Virus record (IMG/VR): IMGVR_UViG_2728369183_000006
From: a virus
Lineage: Duplodnaviria; Heunggongvirae; Uroviricota; Caudoviricetes
Strand: one strand, 5' to 3'
DNA: 12,421 nt
Part shown: piece by piece, positions 2,063 through 12,186 of the stretch
Layout: every line of letters begins with the position of its first letter
Position numbering within the stretch: the stretch's first letter is position 1
Translations under genes and position numbers: made by a program
Notes under the pieces: model-generated
Database searches by the model: none
Told to the model about the DNA's origin: nothing
The model's input: only the letters and a program-made list of their open reading frames with translations

Positions 2063-2601
2063 AAACGGGGGCTGAAGCCATCCGGGCACTGGCCACACAG
2101 CTCCCGGCGTTTCGTCAGAAACTGAGCGATGGCTGGTATCAGGTACGGATTGCCGGGCGGGATGCAGGAGAAACCGAATTATCATCCCGTCTTAATGAGC
2201 CGCTGGCAAATGGTGCCGTGATCCACATCGTGCCGCGTCTTGCGGGAGCAAAAAGTGGCGGTGTGTTTCAGGCGGTGCTGGGTGCGGCGTTGATTGCTAC
2301 GGCAATCTGGATGCCGGGGATCAGTATCGCTTTCAGTGACATTCTCTTTTCAATGGGTGCGGCGATGACGCTTGGTGGTGTGGCGCAGATGCTGGCACCG
2401 AAAGCCAGAACTCCCCGTACACAGACAACGGATAACGGCAAACAGAACACCTATTTCTCCTCACTGGATAACATGGTTGCCCAGGGCAATGTCCTGCCTG
2501 TTCTGTACGGTGAAATGCGCGTGGGGTCACGTGTGGCATCTCAGGAGATCAGCACGGCAGATGAAGGGGATGGTGGTCAGGTTGTGGTAATTGGGCGGTA
2601 A
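1960..2601 (+). CDS. I: Tail assembly protein I
   Basis: 213-aa translation (MAATHTLPLASPGMARICLYGDLQRFGRRIDLRVKTG... ...VAQGNVLPVLYGEMRVGSRVASQEISTADEGDGGQVVVIGR) matches lambda gpI from memory at both ends. Confidence 0.88.
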   Translation: MAATHTLPLASPGMARICLYGDLQRFGRRIDLRVKTGAEAIRALATQLPAFRQKLSDGWYQVRIAGRDAGETELSSRLNEPLANGAVIHIVPRLAGAKSGGVFQAVLGAALIATAIWMPGISIAFSDILFSMGAAMTLGGVAQMLAPKARTPRTQTTDNGKQNTYFSSLDNMVAQGNVLPVLYGEMRVGSRVASQEISTADEGDGGQVVVIGR

Positions 2602-2673
2602 TATTATTTACTCATGTTCTAACTGATTTAATATTTATATCGAACACTGATAATTATTCTATTGGTTAGCTAT

Positions 2674-3012
2674 ATGAACAAAACGATTTTATTCTGCACG
2701 ATTATTGCCTTAACAGGATGTAAGTCTTTGGATTACGTAAAATCCGGAAAACCTGTAATGGAAGGTAATTCATTAAAAAATATTGATGAATTGTCAGGCT
2801 GCATATCCAGACAATGGGCTGGTAATGGAACACCTATAACATCCCTTCCTATTGAGAATGGGGTAAGCCTTTTAGTTCCACAGGCTATGGGGGGATATGA
2901 TGTTGTGCTTGATATCAAAAAAGCAGGAAATGGCAGTAGTTTTACTCTTTATGAACGTGTACCAGCATTAACGCCAAAAATTTTTGCTGATAGTGTTAAT
3001 GCATGTAAATAA
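2674..3012 (+). CDS. Putative outer-membrane lipoprotein, a moron inserted between I and J
   Basis: ORF with the lipoprotein signal MNKTILFCTIIALTG|C (lipobox LTGC; the +2 residue is Lys, not Asp). The longest ORF starts at TTG 2662, but ATG 2674 gives a canonical signal peptide. The segment is markedly AT-rich compared with the flanking tail genes and is followed by an intrinsic terminator. I recognise no homolog. Confidence 0.6.
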   Translation: MNKTILFCTIIALTGCKSLDYVKSGKPVMEGNSLKNIDELSGCISRQWAGNGTPITSLPIENGVSLLVPQAMGGYDVVLDIKKAGNGSSFTLYERVPALTPKIFADSVNACK

Positions 3013-3078: not shown

Positions 3079-6000
3079 ATGGGTAAAGGAAGCAGTAAGG
3101 GGCATACCCCGCGCGAAGCGAGGGACAACCTGAAGTCCACGCAGCTGCTGAGTGTGATCGATGCCATCAGCGAAGGGCCGGTTGAAGGTCCGGTGGNNNN
3201 NNNNNNNNNNNNNNNNNNNNNNNNNNNNNNNNNNNNNNNNNNNNNNNNNNNNNNNNNNNNNNNNNNNNACCGGTGCTGGACAGTGAGGGGAATACTAACA
3301 TCTCTGGTGTCACGGTGGTGTTCCGGGCAGGTGAGCAGGAACAGACACCGCCGGAGGGATTTGAATCATCAGGTTCCGAGACGGTACTGGGTACGGAAGT
3401 GAAATACGACACGCCGATCACCCGGACCATCACGTCGGCAAACATTGACCGACTGCGTTTTACCTTCGGTGTGCAGGCACTGGTGGAAACCACCTCAAAG
3501 GGGGACAGGAATCCGTCGGAAGTTCGCCTGCTGGTTCAGATACAACGTAATGGTGGCTGGGTGACGGAAAAAGACATCACCATTAAGGGCAAAACCACCT
3601 CGCAGTATCTGGCCTCGGTGGTGGTGGGTAACCTGCCGCCGCGCCCGTTCAATATACGGATGCGCAGGATGACGCCGGACAGCACCACAGACCAGCTGCA
3701 GAACAAAACGCTCTGGTCGTCATACACCGAAATCATCGATGTGAAACAGGGCTACCCGAACACGGCACTGGTCGGCGTGCAGGTGGATTCGGAGCAGTTC
3801 GGCAGCCAGCAGGTGAGCCGTAATTATCATCTTCGCGGGCGCATTCTGCAGGTGCCGTCGAACTATAACCCGCAGACGCGNNNNNNNNNNACGGTATCTG
3901 GGACGGGACGTTTAAACCGGCATACAGCAACAACATGGCCTGGTGTCTGTGGGATATGCTGACCCACCCGCGCTACGGCATGGGGAAACGTCTTGGTGCG
4001 GCGGATGTGGACAAATGGGCGCTGTATGTCATCGGCCAGTATTGCGATCAGTCAGTGCCGGATGGCTTTGGTGGCACGGAGCCGCGCATCACCTGTAATG
4101 CCTACCTGACCACACAGCGTAAGGCGTGGGATGTTCTCAGTGATTTCTGCTCGGCGATGCGCTGTATGCCGGTATGGAACGGGCAGACGCTGACGTTCGT
4201 GCAGGACCGACCATCAGATAAGGTGTGGACCTATAACCGCAGTAATGTGGTGATGCCGGATGATGGCGCGCCGTTCCGCTACAGCTTCAGCGCCCTGAAG
4301 GACCGCCATAATGCCGTTGAGGTGAACTGGATTGACCCGAATAACGGCTGGGAGACGGCGACAGAGCTTGTTGAAGATACGCAGGCCATTCTCCGTTACG
4401 GTCGTAACGTCACGAAGATGGATGCCTTTGGCTGTACCAGCCGGGGGCAGGCACACCGCGCCGGGCTGTGGCTGATTAAAACGGAGCTGCTGGAAACGCA
4501 GACCGTGGACTTCAGCGTGGGTGCAGAAGGGCTTCGCCATGTACCGGGCGATGTCATTGAAATCTGTGATGATGACTATGCGGGTATCAGCATCGGCGGG
4601 CGCGTGCTGGCGGTGAACAGCCAGACGCGGACACTGACGCTCGACCGTGAAATCACGCTGCCATCCTCCGGCACCACGCTGATAAGCCTGGTTGACGGAC
4701 AGGGGAATCCGGTCAGCGTGGAGGTCCAGTCCGTCACCGACGGCGTGAAGGTGAAAGTGAGCCGTGTTCCTGACGGCGTTGCTGAATACAGCGTGTGGGG
4801 GCTGAAGCTGCCGACGCTGCGCCAGCGCCTGTTCCGCTGCGTGAGTATCCGTGAGAACGACGACGGCACGTATGCCATCACCGCCGTGCAGCATGTACCG
4901 GAAAAAGAAGCCATCGTGGATAACGGGGCGCACTTTGACGGCGACCAGAGCGGCACGGTGAATGGTGTCACGCCGCCAGCGGTGCAGCACCTGACTGCCG
5001 AAGTCACCGCAGACAGCGGGGAATATCAGGTGCTGGCCCGCTGGGACACGCCGAAGGTGGTGAAGGGCGTGAGCTTCCTGCTCCGTCTGACCGTAACAGC
5101 GGATGACGGCAGTGAGCGGCTGGTCAGCACGGCCCGGACGACGGAAACCACATACCGCTTCAGGCAGCTGGCGCTGGGGAACTACAGGCTGACAGTCAGG
5201 GCGGTAAATGCCTGGGGGCAGCAGGGTGATCCGGCGTCGGTATCATTCCGGATTGCCGCACCGGCAGCACCGTCGCGGATTGAGCTGACGCCGGGCTATT
5301 TTCAGATAACCGCCACGCCGCATCTTGCGGTTTATGATCCGACGGTACAGTTTGAGTTCTGGTTCTCGGAAAAACGGATTGCGGATATCAGGCAGGTTGA
5401 AACCAGCGCGCGTTATCTTGGTACGGCACTGTACTGGATAGCCGCCAGTATCAATATCAAACCGGGCCATGATTATTATTTTTACGTTCGCAGTGTGAAC
5501 ACCGTTGGCAAATCGGCATTCGTGGAGGCTGTCGGTCAGCCGAGTGATGATGCATCAGGCTATCTGGATTTTTTCAAAGGCGAGATAGGGAAAACCCATC
5601 TGGCTCAGGAGCTGTGGACGCAGATTGATAACGGTCAGCTTGCGCCTGACCTGACTGAAATCAGGACGTCCATAACGGATGTCAGCAATGAAATAACACA
5701 GACCGTCAATAAGAAACTGGAAGACCAGAGTGCAGCGATCCAGCAGATACAGAAGGTTCAGGTTGATACAAATAATAACCTGAACAGCATGTGGGCAGTG
5801 AAGCTGCAGCAGATGCAGGACGGACGCCTTTATATTGCGGGTATCGGTGCCGGTATTGAGAACACCCCTGACGGCATGCAGAGTCAGGTGCTGCTGGCAG
5901 CAGACAGGATTGCGATGATTAATCCTGCGAATGGCAACACAAAGCCGATGTTTGTTGGTCAGGGCGATCAGATATTCATGAATGAAGTGTTCCTGAAACG

Positions 6001-7322: not shown

Positions 7323-7332
7323 TGGGGTGAAT

Positions 7333-10300
7333 ATGGCAGTAAAGATTTCAGGTGTACTGAAAGACGGCACAGGAAAACCGGTACAGAACTGCACAATCCA
7401 GCTGAAAGCAAAACGTAACAGCACCACGGTGGTGGTGAACACGCTGGCCTCAGAAAATCCGGATGAAGCCGGGCGTTACAGCATGGACGTTGAGTACGGT
7501 CAGTACAGCGTTATTCTGTTGGTGGAAGGATTCCCGCCGTCACATGCCGGGACCATCACCGTGTATGAAGATTCCCGACCCGGTACGCTGAATGATTTTC
7601 TCGGTGCCATGACGGAGGATGATGCCCGTCCTGAGGCACTGCGCCGCTTTGAACTGATGGTGGAAGAGGTGGCGCGTAACGCGTCCGCGGTGGCACAGAA
7701 CACGGCAGCCGCGAAGAAATCAGCCAGCGATGCCAGCACATCAGCCCGTGAGGCGGCAACCCGTGCGACTGATGCTGCAGGCTCAGCACGAGCAGCCAGC
7801 ACGTCAGCCGGACAGGCCGCTTCGTCGGCTCAGTCTGCGTCTTCCAGCGCAGGAACGGCATCAGCAAAGGCCACTGAAGCATCAAAAAGTGCTGCCGCTG
7901 CAGAGTCCTCAAAAAGCGCGGCGGCCACCAGTGCCGGTGCGGCGAAAACGTCAGAAACGAATGCGGCAGCGTCACAACAATCAGCTGCCACTTCTGCATC
8001 CACCGCGACCACGAAAGCGTCAGAAGCAGCCACCTCAGCCAGAGATGCGTCGGCTTCAAAAGAGGCGGCAAAATTATCAGAAACGAGCGCAGCCTCGAGC
8101 GCCAGTAATGCCGCTTCCTCGGCAACGGCGGCAGGAAATTCCGCGAAGGCGGCAAAGACGTCTGAGACAAACGCTAAGTCCTCTGAAACGGCAGCAGCAC
8201 AGAGTGCCTCCGCAGCAGCAGGCTCAAAAACAGCGGCTGCGTCGTCTGCCAGTGCAGCGTCAACAAGTGCCGGGCAGGCCTCAGCCAGTGCTAGCGCCGC
8301 CGGAAAATCGGCAGAAAGCGCCGCATCGTCCGCTTCAACAGCCACAACGAAGGCTGGCGAAGCCACTGAACAGGCCAGTGCAGCAGCGAGGTCTGCTTCC
8401 GCAGCGAAGACATCGGAGACGAACGCGAAAGCGTCGGAGACCAGCGCAGAATCCTCAAAAACGGCTGCCGCATCGTCCGCCAGTTCGGCGGCGTCATCGG
8501 CATCATCGGCGTCTGCTTCAAAAGATGAGGCGACCAGACAGGCGTCAGCAGCGAAGGGCAGCGCCACGACAGCATCCGCGAAGGCGACAGAGGCAGCTGG
8601 CAGTGCGACGGCGGCAGCACAGAGCAAAAGTACGGCGGAATCCGCGGCAACGCGCGCCGAGACAGCGGCAAAACGGGCAGAGGATATTGCATCCGCCGTG
8701 GCGCTTGAGGATGCAAGTACGACGAAAAAGGGGATAGTACAGCTCAGCAGTGCGACCAACATCACATCTGAAACGCTTGCCGCGACACCGAAGGCAGTTA
8801 AAGCAGCGAATGACAATGCGAATGGCAGGGTACCATCTAACCGAAAAGTTAACGGGAAAGCACTGACTGCGGATATAACATTAACACCGAAAGATATTGG
8901 CACTTTAAATTCAGTAACGATCTCTTTCTCTGGCGGGGCTGGGTGGTTCAAACTGGCAACGGTTACCATGCCACAAGCGAGTTCCATCGTTTACATCGCA
9001 TTGATTGGTGGCGCTGGTTACAACGTCGGTTCCCCACATCAGGCAGGCATTTCAGAACTGGTTCTACGAGCAGGCAATGGAAACCCCAAAGGAATTACCG
9101 GGGCTTTGTGGAAGCGTACAGCCGTCGGATTAACGAATTTCGCCTGGATCAACACATCCGGCGATACATATGATATTTACGTTGAGATTGGCAATTATGC
9201 GACGAGTGTAAATATCCATTGGGATTGTACTGCAAATGCGTCAGTTTCTATTTATACCTCGCCAACATATTCAGCGAGTAAGCCTTCCAGCGTTACCGGT
9301 GGTGTTGTTTATACGATGTATAGCTCACATCAGAAACCTACACCATCAGATATTGGAGCGCTGCCAACGACTGGAGGGACTATTTCAGGTCCGTTGTCTG
9401 TTACTGATGGGATCACCGGGGCACTGAAGGGGAACGCCGATACCGCGACGAAACTTGCGGCAGCCCCAAAAATTAACGGTGTTAAGTTTGATGGCTCGGC
9501 GGATATTAACCTCACGCCGGAAAATATTGGTGCATTTGCCCGACGTTCGACGGGGGCTTATGCGGATTCGAATGGAGCCGTTCCCTGGAATGCCGAATCA
9601 GGCGCTTACAATGTCGCCCGCTCTGGCGACAGCTATATTCTGGTTAACTTCTATACCGGAGTCGGAAGTTGCCGGACCCTGCAGATGAAGGCGCATTACA
9701 GAAATCGTGGTCTGTTCTACCGTTCTTCAAGAGACGGTTATGGTTTTGAGGAAGACTGGGCAGAAGTTTATACCTCGAAAAATCTTCCACCAGAAAGCTA
9801 CCCAGTTGGCGCACCAATCCCGTGGCCATCAGATACCGTTCCGTCTGGTTATGCCCTGATGCAGGGGCAGACTTTTAACAAATCTGCCTACCCGAAACTT
9901 GCAGCGGCTTATCCGTCAGGCGTGATCCCTGATATGCGTGGCTGGACGATTAAGGGCAAACCCGCCAGTGGCCGGGCCGTATTGTCTCAGGAACAGGACG
10001 GCATAAAATCGCACACCCACAGCGCCAGCGCATCCAGTACGGATTTGGGGACGAAAACCACATCGTCGTTTGATTACGGCACTAAATCCACGAATAACAC
10101 CGGGGCGCATACGCACAGTCTGAGTGGCTCTACGGGGTCTGCCGGTGTTCATACTCATGGTAATGGTATTCGTTGGCCAGGAGGCGGCGGTTCTGCGTTA
10201 GCATTTTATGATGGCGGTGGGTTCACTTATGTCCAGAATTCACAGTATCAAGTAAGCCCGGAGACTTCTTCCTATAGATCGTATTATCAACGTATTCAGA

Positions 10301-10503
10301 CACAGTCAGCAGGTGCTCATACCCACTCGCTGTCTGGTACTGCAGCAAGTTCTGGCGCACATGCACATACTGTAGGTATTGGTGCGCATACGCACTCCGT
10401 TGCGATTGGTTCACATGGACACACCATCACCGTTAACGCTGCGGGTAACGCGGAAAACACCGTCAAAAACATCGCATTTAACTATATTGTGAGGCTTGCA
10501 TAA
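7333..10503 (+). CDS. stf: Side tail fibre protein Stf (long form, about 1056 aa)
   Basis: N-terminus [37 protein letters not shown] and C-terminus ...[31 protein letters not shown] match lambda Stf from memory. ATG 7333 is preferred over the GTG at 7327. It contains an Ala/Ser-rich repetitive shaft, [22 protein letters not shown]-type fibre repeats and His-rich HxH motifs. Confidence 0.88.
7680..8720 (+). repeat. GC-rich Ala/Ser/Thr low-complexity coding repeats within stf
   Basis: Reiterated AAKTSETNA-type units recur at about 7943, 8152 and 8404 with differing synonymous codons. The region produces long spurious ORFs in other frames on both strands. Confidence 0.6.
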
Positions 10504-11087
10504 TGGCATTCAGAATGAGTGAACAAGCACGGACCATAAAAATTTATAATCTGCTGGCCGGAACTAATGAATTTATTGGTGAAGGTGACGCATATATTCC
10601 GCCTCATACAGGTCTGCCAGCAAACAGTACCGATATTGCACCACCAGATATTCCTGCTGGCTTTGTGGCTGTTTTCAACAGTGATGAGGCATCGTGGCAT
10701 CTCGTTGAAGACCATCGGGGGAAAACGGTTTATGACGTAGCGTCAGGGGACGAGTTATTTATTTCTGAACTCGGTCCGTTACCGGAAAATGTTACCTGGT
10801 TATCGCCGGAAGGGGAGTTTCAGAAGTGGAACGGCACAGCCTGGGTGAAGGATACGGAAGCAGAAAAACTGTTCCGGATCCGGGAGGCGGAAGAAACAAA
10901 AAACAACCTGATGCAGGTAGCCAGTGAGCATATTGCGCCGCTTCAGGATGCTGCAGATCTGGAAATTGCAACGGAGGAAGAAACCTCATTGCTGGAAGCC
11001 TGGAAAAAGTATCGGGTGTTGCTGAACCGTGTTGATACATCAACTGCACCTGATATTGAGTGGCCTACGAACCCTGTCAGGGAGTAA
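10503..11087 (+). CDS. tfa: Tail fibre assembly protein Tfa
   Basis: 194-aa translation ([54 protein letters not shown]...) matches lambda Tfa from memory. Its ATG overlaps the stf stop (TAATG at 10501-10505). Confidence 0.9.
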
Positions 11088-11137
11088 TCATTGGGATTAT
11101 GCCGCAGCACGTCTTAAGCAAGAACGTGCTGCGGTTG
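10922..11137 (+). repeat. Direct repeat copy A: tfa 3' end plus downstream hairpin
   Basis: About 216 bp that align by eye with 11971-12186 at roughly 85-90% identity. No computed alignment was made. Confidence 0.7.
11102..11134. terminator. Hairpin between convergent tfa and methyltransferase genes, a possible bidirectional terminator
   Basis: Stem ccgcagcacg (11102-11111) pairs with cgtgctgcgg (11125-11134) around a 13-nt loop. A T-run follows at 11145-11150, overlapping the methyltransferase stop. Confidence 0.45.
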
Positions 11138-11141
11138 GATG

Positions 11142-11810
11142 CTATTTTTTCCCTGAAGCGGAAAACATTACTACAGTACCTTGAACCTTGGTTTTAACAT
11201 TCTCGAAATGCTCTGAGAGTATATGTGTTAAGCCTTCTTCGGAATCTTTTGTGTTTGAAAAGATGCCTTTCTGATTGTAAATGCGCATCAGTTTTTGACC
11301 GAAGCTATTGTGCACAACTCCATCGCCAAGAATTGTGGCTCCGTATAGAGTTCCATCGTCAGTTAAGGCCTGCGCCGCATTGCGTATTACACAGCTTTTT
11401 GTAGATATATTTCCAGGCAGGCAGTGAAGAAGGTAAAACATGGAAATGGAATCAAATTGACCATGTAACGCCGCGGGATAAGGTTCAAAAACATCATGGC
11501 TAATTTTATGTTTAATTTTTGATTCCCCAGCCCTTGTAGATGCCGCGTTCAGGCTAGCTTCGTTCAAATCCATTAAAGATATCAGACTACTCTCAGGTAC
11601 GTGAGTAAGGTAAAACCCAGTTCCAACACCAATATCCAGATGGTTGTTACCTACATGTTCCAGAAAGTGTGGAAGAAGGTGTTCCTTTGTAGGACATCCC
11701 CATGCAAGCCGATTTGATACTCCCAAAACCCACCAGTCATAAAGCTTTAGGGTAAGTGGTGTGTAAATTTTAGCCCCATCATCTGTGTTTTTTTTCATTG
11801 ATTTCACCAT
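11142..11810 (-). CDS. Class I SAM-dependent methyltransferase, unknown substrate (accessory cargo gene)
   Basis: Minus-strand ORF of 222 aa. An alternative start at 11798 (MKKNTDDG...) has a GGTGA-like RBS. Rossmann motif I is present (HLDIGVGTGFY), with an acidic residue after beta2 (SLMD) and a FDSISMFYLLHCLP-type motif. No DPPY/NPPY motif is visible, so a DNA N6/N4-methyltransferase seems unlikely. The segment is AT-rich. Confidence 0.7.
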   Translation of the reverse strand: MVKSMKKNTDDGAKIYTPLTLKLYDWWVLGVSNRLAWGCPTKEHLLPHFLEHVGNNHLDIGVGTGFYLTHVPESSLISLMDLNEASLNAASTRAGESKIKHKISHDVFEPYPAALHGQFDSISMFYLLHCLPGNISTKSCVIRNAAQALTDDGTLYGATILGDGVVHNSFGQKLMRIYNQKGIFSNTKDSEEGLTHILSEHFENVKTKVQGTVVMFSASGKK

Positions 11811-11866
11811 GTTATAGTTTTATTTGTGAATTAAATCAATTATGGCGATGAATTACAAGGGGTTAA

Positions 11867-12136
11867 ATGCTGCCGCAGCATAGCGATATTGAAATAGCCT
11901 GGTATGCTTCGATACAGCAGGAGCCGAATGGCTGGAAGACCGTCACCACACAGTTCTACATCCAGGAATTCAGTGAGTATATTGCGCCACTGCAGGATGC
12001 TGTAGATCTGGAAATCGCAACGGAGGAAGAAAGATCGTTGCTGGAGGCATGGAATAAATATCGGGTATTGTTGAATCGTGTTGATACATCAACTGCACCT
12101 GATATTGAGTGGCCTGCAAACCCTGTCAGGGAGTAA
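11867..12136 (+). CDS. Tfa-like ORF (89 aa): novel 36-aa N-terminus fused to a conserved Tfa C-terminal domain; possibly a functional mini-Tfa or a remnant
   Basis: The C-terminal 54 aa ([54 protein letters not shown]) differ from the tfa C-terminus at only about 5 positions. An AAGGGG RBS lies 4 nt upstream of the ATG. Confidence 0.5.
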
Positions 12137-12186
12137 TCATTGGGATTATGCCGCAGACACGTCGTATGCAGGAACGTGCTGCGGTT
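11971..12186 (+). repeat. Direct repeat copy B: tfa-like 3' end plus downstream hairpin
   Basis: Aligns by eye with 10922-11137. It includes an imperfect copy of the hairpin (ccgcagacacgt...acgtgctgcgg at 12151-12184). Confidence 0.7.

Follow-up and report, generated by a model that had tools for sequence, protein, structure and literature searches.

Gene content of the locus

The window analyzed here, 12,421 nucleotides long, is the tail end of an Escherichia coli lambdoid prophage and carries the tail genes M, L, K, I and J, lom, a side tail fiber gene (7327-10503; 1,058 amino acids [aa]) and the tail fiber assembly gene tfa. Convergent with tfa lies an intact open reading frame (ORF) for a methyltransferase on the minus strand (11142-11810; 222 aa in the ORF list), and on its other side follows a truncated second copy of tfa, which RefSeq labels a partial tail fiber assembly pseudogene (Table 1). 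Positions 11811 to 11866 form the 56-nt spacer upstream of the methyltransferase ORF, so that the stretch from 11142 to 11866 comprises the gene together with its promoter region. The E. coli AR_0017 genome contains an exact match to the window, and there the prophage extends for another ~1 kb, up to a truncated ompW that adjoins yciE-yciF and the trp operon.

Table 1 Coordinates of features at the methyltransferase locus
Feature	Position	Strand	Basis or remark
tfa (tail fiber assembly)	10503-11087	+	Convergent with the methyltransferase gene; ORF list, RefSeq
Left direct repeat: 3' end of tfa plus hairpin	10911-11136	+	Repeat families D1 and D2, 89-90% identity
Hairpin between the convergent stop codons	11101-11135		15-bp stem; folding of both strands
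Methyltransferase coding sequence from the probable start M5	11142-11798	-	218 aa plus stop; ORF list, homologues, PHROG, RefSeq
ATG followed by A8 run (ATGAAAAAAAAC)	11787-11798	-	Site of the 2-bp deletion in K-12 ybcY; pairwise alignment
Four additional N-terminal codons (MVKS) of the 222-aa ORF	11799-11810	-	Holds a GGTGA Shine-Dalgarno sequence (11808-11804); probably 5' untranslated region
Promoter candidate 2: TTGATT, 17 nt, TATAAC	11811-11839	-	Proposed for ybcY (PMC3946193, Table 1)
Promoter candidate 1: TTAACC, 16 nt, CATAAT	11839-11866	-	Consensus scan, 9 of 12 matches; CATAAT at 11844-11839
Truncated tfa fragment, tfaX-like	11867-12136	+	56-nt spacer between it and the methyltransferase gene, which is divergent
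Right direct repeat: 3' end of the truncated second tfa (tfaX equivalent) plus hairpin	11960-12186	+	Repeat search

The true start of the methyltransferase is probably not the first codon of the ORF but M5, the ATG at 11798, which would give a product of 218 aa. This assignment rests on the invariance of M5 in our alignments of 36 and 54 homologues, on the majority of homologues starting there, and on the alignment to the PHROG 2132 profile, which begins at residue 5 of the 222-aa ORF. The predicted protein has a mass of ~24 kDa and a pI of 6.9 (family median, 8.9), and no transmembrane or signal-like segment was seen in it. The initial annotation had described the gene as low in GC, and it is: the ORF has a GC content of 41.1% and a GC3 of 35.6%, against 53.5% for the window. 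The enterobacterial homologues are low in GC as well, with 39 to 47% in all copies examined. We note that RefSeq also calls a 45-aa "hypothetical protein" on the plus strand at 11060-11197 ("nucleocapsid protein" in K-12 derivatives), which overlaps the end of tfa, the hairpin and the 3' end of the methyltransferase gene and looks like a spurious gene call.

The stop codons of tfa (11085-11087) and of the methyltransferase gene (11142-11144) are separated by a 54-nt gap that holds a stable hairpin, with free energies of -25.6 kcal/mol on the plus strand and -24.1 kcal/mol on the minus strand (z scores of -3.6 and -3.9), and none of 200 shuffled sequences folded as well. The initial annotation had the two genes converge on a shared hairpin. 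The convergence stands, but the hairpin is part of the 3' module of tfa, because a second copy of it follows the tfa fragment at 12146-12186. We rejected a role in intrinsic termination for both genes: despite its stability, the stem has no U-run directly after it on either strand, a terminator scan made no call, and the structure is repeated after the second tfa copy. The two direct repeats, each made of a tfa 3' end and its hairpin, flank a methyltransferase cassette of ~0.8 kb.

The site downstream of tfa is a variable cargo site in related phages. Cargo found nearby in related phages and prophages includes lom, ompT, an alpha/beta hydrolase gene and a block of yciG, yciF, yciE and Mn-catalase genes. 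In E. coli PA11 (locus L100, 2290-4503) and RM14516 (L101, 2283-4496), tfa and the methyltransferase gene are separated by a block of yciG-, yciF- and yciE-like genes with a Mn-catalase gene, on the strand of the methyltransferase gene. The window prophage lacks this block, and chromosomal ompW'-yciE-yciF adjoin it just past the right end of the window (L001, 14325-15543). Imprecise excision of a phage integrated at ompW may at some time have carried along the yciGFE region of its host.

An intact allele of ybcY

The protein is a 100% match to RefSeq WP_000240999.1, annotated as "class I SAM-dependent methyltransferase", and it matches the catalogued phage protein family PHROG 2132 over its full length (E = 4e-157), with no difference between the two. 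K-12 ybcY (b0562, in the DLP12 prophage) has 98.9% nucleotide identity to the window gene, and the gene order tfaD-ybcY-tfaX of K-12 (MG1655 b0561-b0562-b0563) is the order found here. The window gene is therefore an intact allele of a known, named and already annotated gene, ybcY, an identity that the initial annotation missed, RefSeq-annotated and present in most E. coli genomes as the gene is. ybcY belongs to the cargo ("moron") genes that DLP12-type and lambdoid prophages carry, and here it lies between tfa and the truncated second copy of tfa.

The window and K-12 loci share the upstream spacer, the downstream hairpin and the arrangement of tfa, opposite-strand gene and truncated tfa. They differ in the state of the gene: whereas the window copy is intact, the MG1655 ybcY (b0562) is a pseudogene, marked as frameshifted in RefSeq, and our pairwise alignment places the lesion in a 2-bp deletion at the A8 run that removes the M5 ATG. 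The A8 homopolymer directly follows the start codon in the window, at the exact place of the inactivating deletion in K-12, and may be a slippage-prone site. The loci also differ in their surroundings. The window gene belongs to a prophage whose tail genes are complete from tape measure to tfa, next to ompW and trp, whereas K-12 ybcY lies in the DLP12 remnant at argU, upstream of and beside appY-ompT-envY, neighbors that the window prophage lacks.

We searched complete E. coli genomes for the 725-bp region at a threshold of at least 95% identity and found it in 3,798 of 5,426 (~70%), in up to four places per genome, which makes ybcY one of the most widespread cargo genes of E. coli prophages. 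The frameshift allele of the K-12 type, the only allele that was counted, matched at 99% or more in 379 genomes, the K-12 laboratory strains ER1709, RP437 and MC4100 being the three among the matches listed; the other genomes sampled have a gene of intact length. Fourteen lambdoid phage records carry the gene at >99% identity, including Nesevirus 2G7b, ev243 and ECOR-derived PhiR phages, and the protein cluster at 90% identity has 6,589 member sequences. Two records at 99% identity are labeled Bacillus, one a Bacillus thuringiensis CT-43 plasmid record (HM037272.1, H71) and the other a metagenome-assembled genome of a Bacillus sp. (L014); these are most likely E. coli contamination or mis-binning. 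The standard laboratory strain K-12 is a natural null for ybcY, which may be why the gene has escaped functional study. A literature search for WP_000240999, phrog_2132 and c0651 returned nothing, and the papers on ybcY give only its location, a deletion, a microarray line and a SELEX promoter/H-NS entry, with no function assigned.

Promoter region and expression

The initial annotation had proposed that the gene has its own promoter, on the strength of a CATAAT-like -10 element. This element is present, as part of one of two promoter candidates that overlap in the 56-nt spacer (Table 1). However, shuffled sequences contain 2.8 ± 1.5 promoter-like sites and the region itself has 2, so that the sequence match alone is no better than chance. 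Outside support comes from K-12, where Shimada et al. (2014) located a genomic SELEX site for RpoD holoenzyme in the divergent ybcY/tfaX spacer (PMC3946193); the same table flags an H-NS site in that spacer (PMC3946193). The K-12 spacer differs from that of the window by one base, and carrying the in vitro results over from K-12 makes a stand-alone sigma-70 promoter plausible for the window gene. By the same analogy, the H-NS site suggests that the promoter is likely silenced rather than constitutively expressed. The proposal of an own promoter thus gains a bound RpoD site, while the sequence match on which it was based lies within the range of shuffles and the H-NS site points to silencing. 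Free phage genomes have the gene in the orientation of int and the leftward early operon, so that read-through from PL might express it during lytic growth.

Fold and enzyme class

The class I Rossmann motifs quoted in the initial annotation are all present, with DIGVGTGFY at residue 59, SLMD at residue 78 and FDSISMFYLLHCLP at residue 119. The glycine-rich loop of motif I (D/E-x-G-x-G-x-G) is DIGVGTG at residues 59 to 65, in which D59, G61 and G63 are invariant among 36 homologues; the acidic residue at the end of strand 2, which binds the ribose hydroxyls, is D81, invariant in both alignments; and the acidic residue after strand 3 lies in an H105-D106 pair that is invariant among the 36 Enterobacterales homologues. 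In the wider set of 54 sequences G61 and D81 are still invariant. Four Pfam families scored above their cut-offs (Methyltransf_12, 23, 25 and 11; best E value, 4e-9), among them Methyltransf_12 with 37.5 bits against a cut-off of 30. An AlphaFold2 model computed from the 36 homologues (pLDDT, 90.5) has the seven-strand class I fold, with strands at residues 56-60, 76-81, 99-104, 119-125, 149-160, 202-210 and 213-221, the last two forming the terminal antiparallel β-hairpin; residues 18-52 make up a helical cap at the N terminus, and residues 169-180 an inserted helix. Motifs, profiles and model together confirm the predicted assignment to the class I Rossmann SAM-dependent methyltransferases. 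A comparison of the model by Foldseek, which the initial annotation had suggested for placing the protein in a subfamily, returned mostly small-molecule, lipid and natural-product enzymes as neighbors.

The initial annotation further held that the protein does not look like a DNA methyltransferase, since it saw no DPPY/NPPY-type motif IV, and this view is well supported by the sequence and the predicted structure. A regular-expression search of the protein for [DNS]PP[YFWH] returned nothing, as did one for DPPY/NPPY; the protein lacks the C5-type PC dipeptide; and its sole ENV, at residue 203, falls in the C-terminal β-hairpin, outside the context of C5 motif VI. The protein matched no DNA-methylase family in Pfam, NCBIfam or PADLOC (E ≤ 0.1-1), and none appeared among the NCBIfam matches of 54 family members. 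There is no target-recognition domain, the protein being a 218-aa core and cap without an extra domain, and no DNA methyltransferase is among the listed fold matches.

Enzymes acting on small molecules, lipids and natural products make up most of the listed sequence and fold neighbors; methyltransferases of tRNA and of the mRNA cap account for a few, and none of the neighbors is a specific relative. The best PDB sequence matches are JHAMT (profile E = 7e-6) and UbiG, identity to characterized enzymes is 10 to 21%, and every NCBIfam score is far under its cut-off. Among the 54 relatives the commonest weak NCBIfam match is BioC (38 of 54), followed by CpaM, UbiE and NodS. We therefore rejected any specific family name by way of NCBIfam, for which the scores of both the protein and its relatives are far too low. 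In the case of BioC (TIGR02072), the window protein gave no match at E ≤ 0.1, against a best value of 8e-10 for other family members, and no bio genes were found near the gene in 80 loci. For JHAMT (PDB 7ebs and 7ec0), BioC and Tam, which are carboxyl O-methyltransferases of the Methyltransf_11/12 type, the likeness is confined to the SAM-binding core; as far as tested, they have no counterpart of the cap motif of the window family, YDWWVL..SN..AW.C. High-ranking fold matches also include PmtA (8ys9) and Plasmodium PMT (3uj7), with query TM-scores (TMq) of 0.62 to 0.68 at 15 to 19% identity. The cap motif may resemble that of some fungal and actinomycete natural-product methyltransferases that methylate carboxyl groups. 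A small-molecule methyltransferase is the best-supported class for the protein, with an RNA or protein substrate as a less likely second. Of the initial suggestion of a small-molecule, protein or RNA enzyme rather than a Dam-like one, the rejection of Dam is borne out and small-molecule matches dominate, whereas the RNA and protein options are less supported. Within the small-molecule class we lean weakly toward carboxylate O-methylation, as in BioC, JHAMT and Tam.

Conservation and distribution of the family

In an alignment of 36 Enterobacterales homologues with 56 to 90% identity, 60 columns are invariant. These include the cap motif Y24-D25-W26-W27-V28-L29, together with N33, W37 and C39, and a C-terminal block, Y178-N179-K181-G182-I183-F184-N186-D189. 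Against homologues of 79 to 90% identity the dN/dS ratio is 0.11 to 0.21, which by these sequence comparisons indicates that the family is under purifying selection. The initial annotation had named a confident DNA-methylase profile, a frameshift and a lack of conservation as outcomes that would speak against it; none of them was found, the copy being intact and its family under purifying selection.

The family extends far beyond the Enterobacterales. A profile search of 1.84 billion cluster representatives matched 1,757 clusters at E ≤ 0.001 and 414 at E ≤ 1e-30, among them fungal proteins from Postia, Endocarpon and Escovopsis, and a scan of species-representative genomes found relatives in at least 600 bacterial species. 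Those with 41 to 57% identity come from Pseudomonas, Dyella, Burkholderiaceae, Acidobacteria, Nostoc, Vibrio, Oceanobacillus and Pseudarthrobacter, among others. Throughout the contexts examined it is a stand-alone gene, and long noncoding stretches often flank it; among the closer homologues, which lie in Salmonella, Enterobacter, Yersinia, Citrobacter and E. coli islands, no two surroundings are the same. When we clustered the ORFs within ±4 kb of the gene in 80 loci of different species, no conserved neighbor was found. The recurrent neighbor families are all ubiquitous ones (SDR in 13 of the 80 loci, ABC ATPase in 9, LysR in 8), and two further clusters, with members in 41 and 11 loci, consist of ORFs that lie in other frames of the methyltransferase gene. 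Guilt by association was dropped as a route to function, as only ubiquitous families recur near the gene in these loci. Domain fusions were likewise set aside as a clue: longer relatives carry no informative extra domain, and a single fungal gene model fused to an RCC1 repeat protein is probably a gene-model artifact.

Proposed function and alternatives

We consider it reasonably probable that intact ybcY encodes a cytoplasmic small-molecule methyltransferase, carried as prophage cargo under its own sigma-70 promoter, that confers a trait on the lysogen. The product would be a soluble class I SAM-dependent enzyme, its fold shown by profiles and model and its activity inferred, with an aromatic-rich N-terminal helical cap placed over the active site. 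With SAM as the methyl donor, its most likely acceptor would be a small metabolite or xenobiotic rather than DNA. The gene would probably be transcribed on its own, from a sigma-70 promoter within the AT-rich spacer that separates it from the divergent tfa fragment, a step for which the K-12 promoter provides partial in vitro support. Expression in the lysogen would probably be low or conditional, because the spacer is also an H-NS target. The gene would then provide the lysogen with a metabolic or chemical-tolerance trait, in the manner of the cargo genes lom, bor and ompT, and the stress and envelope cargo found nearby fits such a role in lysogenic conversion, without naming a substrate. Four observations tell against this reading: all likeness to characterized enzymes is at low identity, with NCBIfam scores far under the cut-offs, the family median pI of 8.9 is compatible with a nucleic-acid or protein substrate, the promoter matches are at chance level on sequence alone, and K-12 manages without a functional gene, so that any benefit must be conditional.

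A further proposal, which we offer tentatively and hold to be rather doubtful, is that the YbcY family forms a functionally distinct clade of small-molecule methyltransferases, marked by YDWWVL..SN..AW.C, that was captured by lambdoid phages and turned into a chemical-defense or metabolite-modifying trait of the E. coli lysogen. If true, the trait could be, for example, the detoxification of a gut compound or one derived from a competitor, and it would explain why an intact copy is kept in ~70% of E. coli genomes. Knowing the substrate would add a further function to lysogenic conversion and give an annotation to a conserved orphan family found in many phyla. As a sequence finding, ybcY is otherwise ordinary, with a correct RefSeq annotation, a catalogued phage family and no sign of an unusual mechanism.

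The alternative that survives best, unlikely as we judge it to be, is that the enzyme methylates RNA (tRNA or rRNA) or protein and so changes translation, or a protein, of the host, either in the lysogen or in the course of infection. In its favor are the basic median pI of the family and the weak matches of a few members to RlmA, RsmC and PrmC. The window copy itself has a pI of 6.9, however, and consists of a minimal core and cap with no RNA-binding or accessory domain; its best sequence-level matches are small-molecule enzymes, and no NCBIfam model for an RNA or protein methyltransferase matches it at E ≤ 0.1.

It is quite improbable that the enzyme N-methylates phospholipids or their head groups, in the manner of PmtA or PMT, and so modifies the membrane lipids of the lysogen. 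The second-ranked Foldseek match is a phosphatidylethanolamine N-methyltransferase (8ys9; E = 3e-11), several phosphoethanolamine N-methyltransferases come next in the list, and the N-terminal helix (residues 18 to 36) is rich in aromatic residues, of which Y24, W26, W27 and W37 are invariant in the Enterobacterales set; the gene also sits amid envelope-related cargo, lom and ompT. Yet the TM-scores of ~0.62 are no better than those of unrelated small-molecule methyltransferases, and the weak NCBIfam match to PmtA (NF045882) reaches 15.7 bits against a cut-off of 390 and recurs in just 6 of 54 family members.

We give similarly little credence to ybcY as a functionless passenger, an AT-rich relic silenced by H-NS and hitchhiking in a recombination hotspot of tail fiber genes. 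Such an origin would agree with the tail fiber gene fragments all around the gene, with the H-NS site in its promoter spacer and with the frameshifted pseudogene in K-12, where one screen reported no phenotype for a ybcY mutant, though the allele was already broken. Against it stand the low dN/dS, the 60 invariant columns and conservation out to other phyla and fungi, the 6,589 members of the 90%-identity cluster, and the counts of the frameshift allele, at ≥99% in 379 genomes (the three listed being K-12 laboratory strains), and of the gene, in 3,798.

There is a slight chance that YbcY is an anti-defense factor or toxin, methylating, for instance, a defense signaling molecule or a host target in lytic growth. 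The int-like orientation makes early read-through from PL conceivable, and the position downstream of tfa is a variable cargo site, but a partner gene is absent, and most relatives stand alone in chromosomal, non-phage contexts across many phyla, which fits housekeeping-type chemistry borrowed by phages. PADLOC gave no significant match either, its best being mad2 at E = 0.009 and a chance-level 12.9 bits, and assignment to a defense system was rejected. Finally, a DNA methyltransferase for anti-restriction or epigenetic control is hardly credible: orphan enzymes of this kind are often carried by phages and the SAM-binding fold is present, but (D/N/S)PP(Y/F/W) and PC motifs, a target-recognition domain and any DNA-methylase profile or listed fold match are all missing, and the lone ENV is misplaced.

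Other features of the window

Between tail assembly gene I and gene J, the window contains an ORF on the plus strand (2662-3012) in a region of ~34% GC (2601-3000). Its N terminus resembles a lipoprotein signal (MNKTILFCTIIALTGC), RefSeq has a shorter hypothetical protein there, and the ORF is probably another cargo gene. The window contains 217 N in total, with masked bases at ~740-880, 3200-3270 and 3880-3895, and tail genes L and J look split in the ORF list because these masked bases interrupt them. Within the side tail fiber gene, positions 7700 to 8750 on the plus strand encode Ala/Ser/Thr-rich repeats at ~60% GC with an AT skew of up to 0.44, and this repetitive, skewed stretch accounts for the long spurious ORFs in the other frames.
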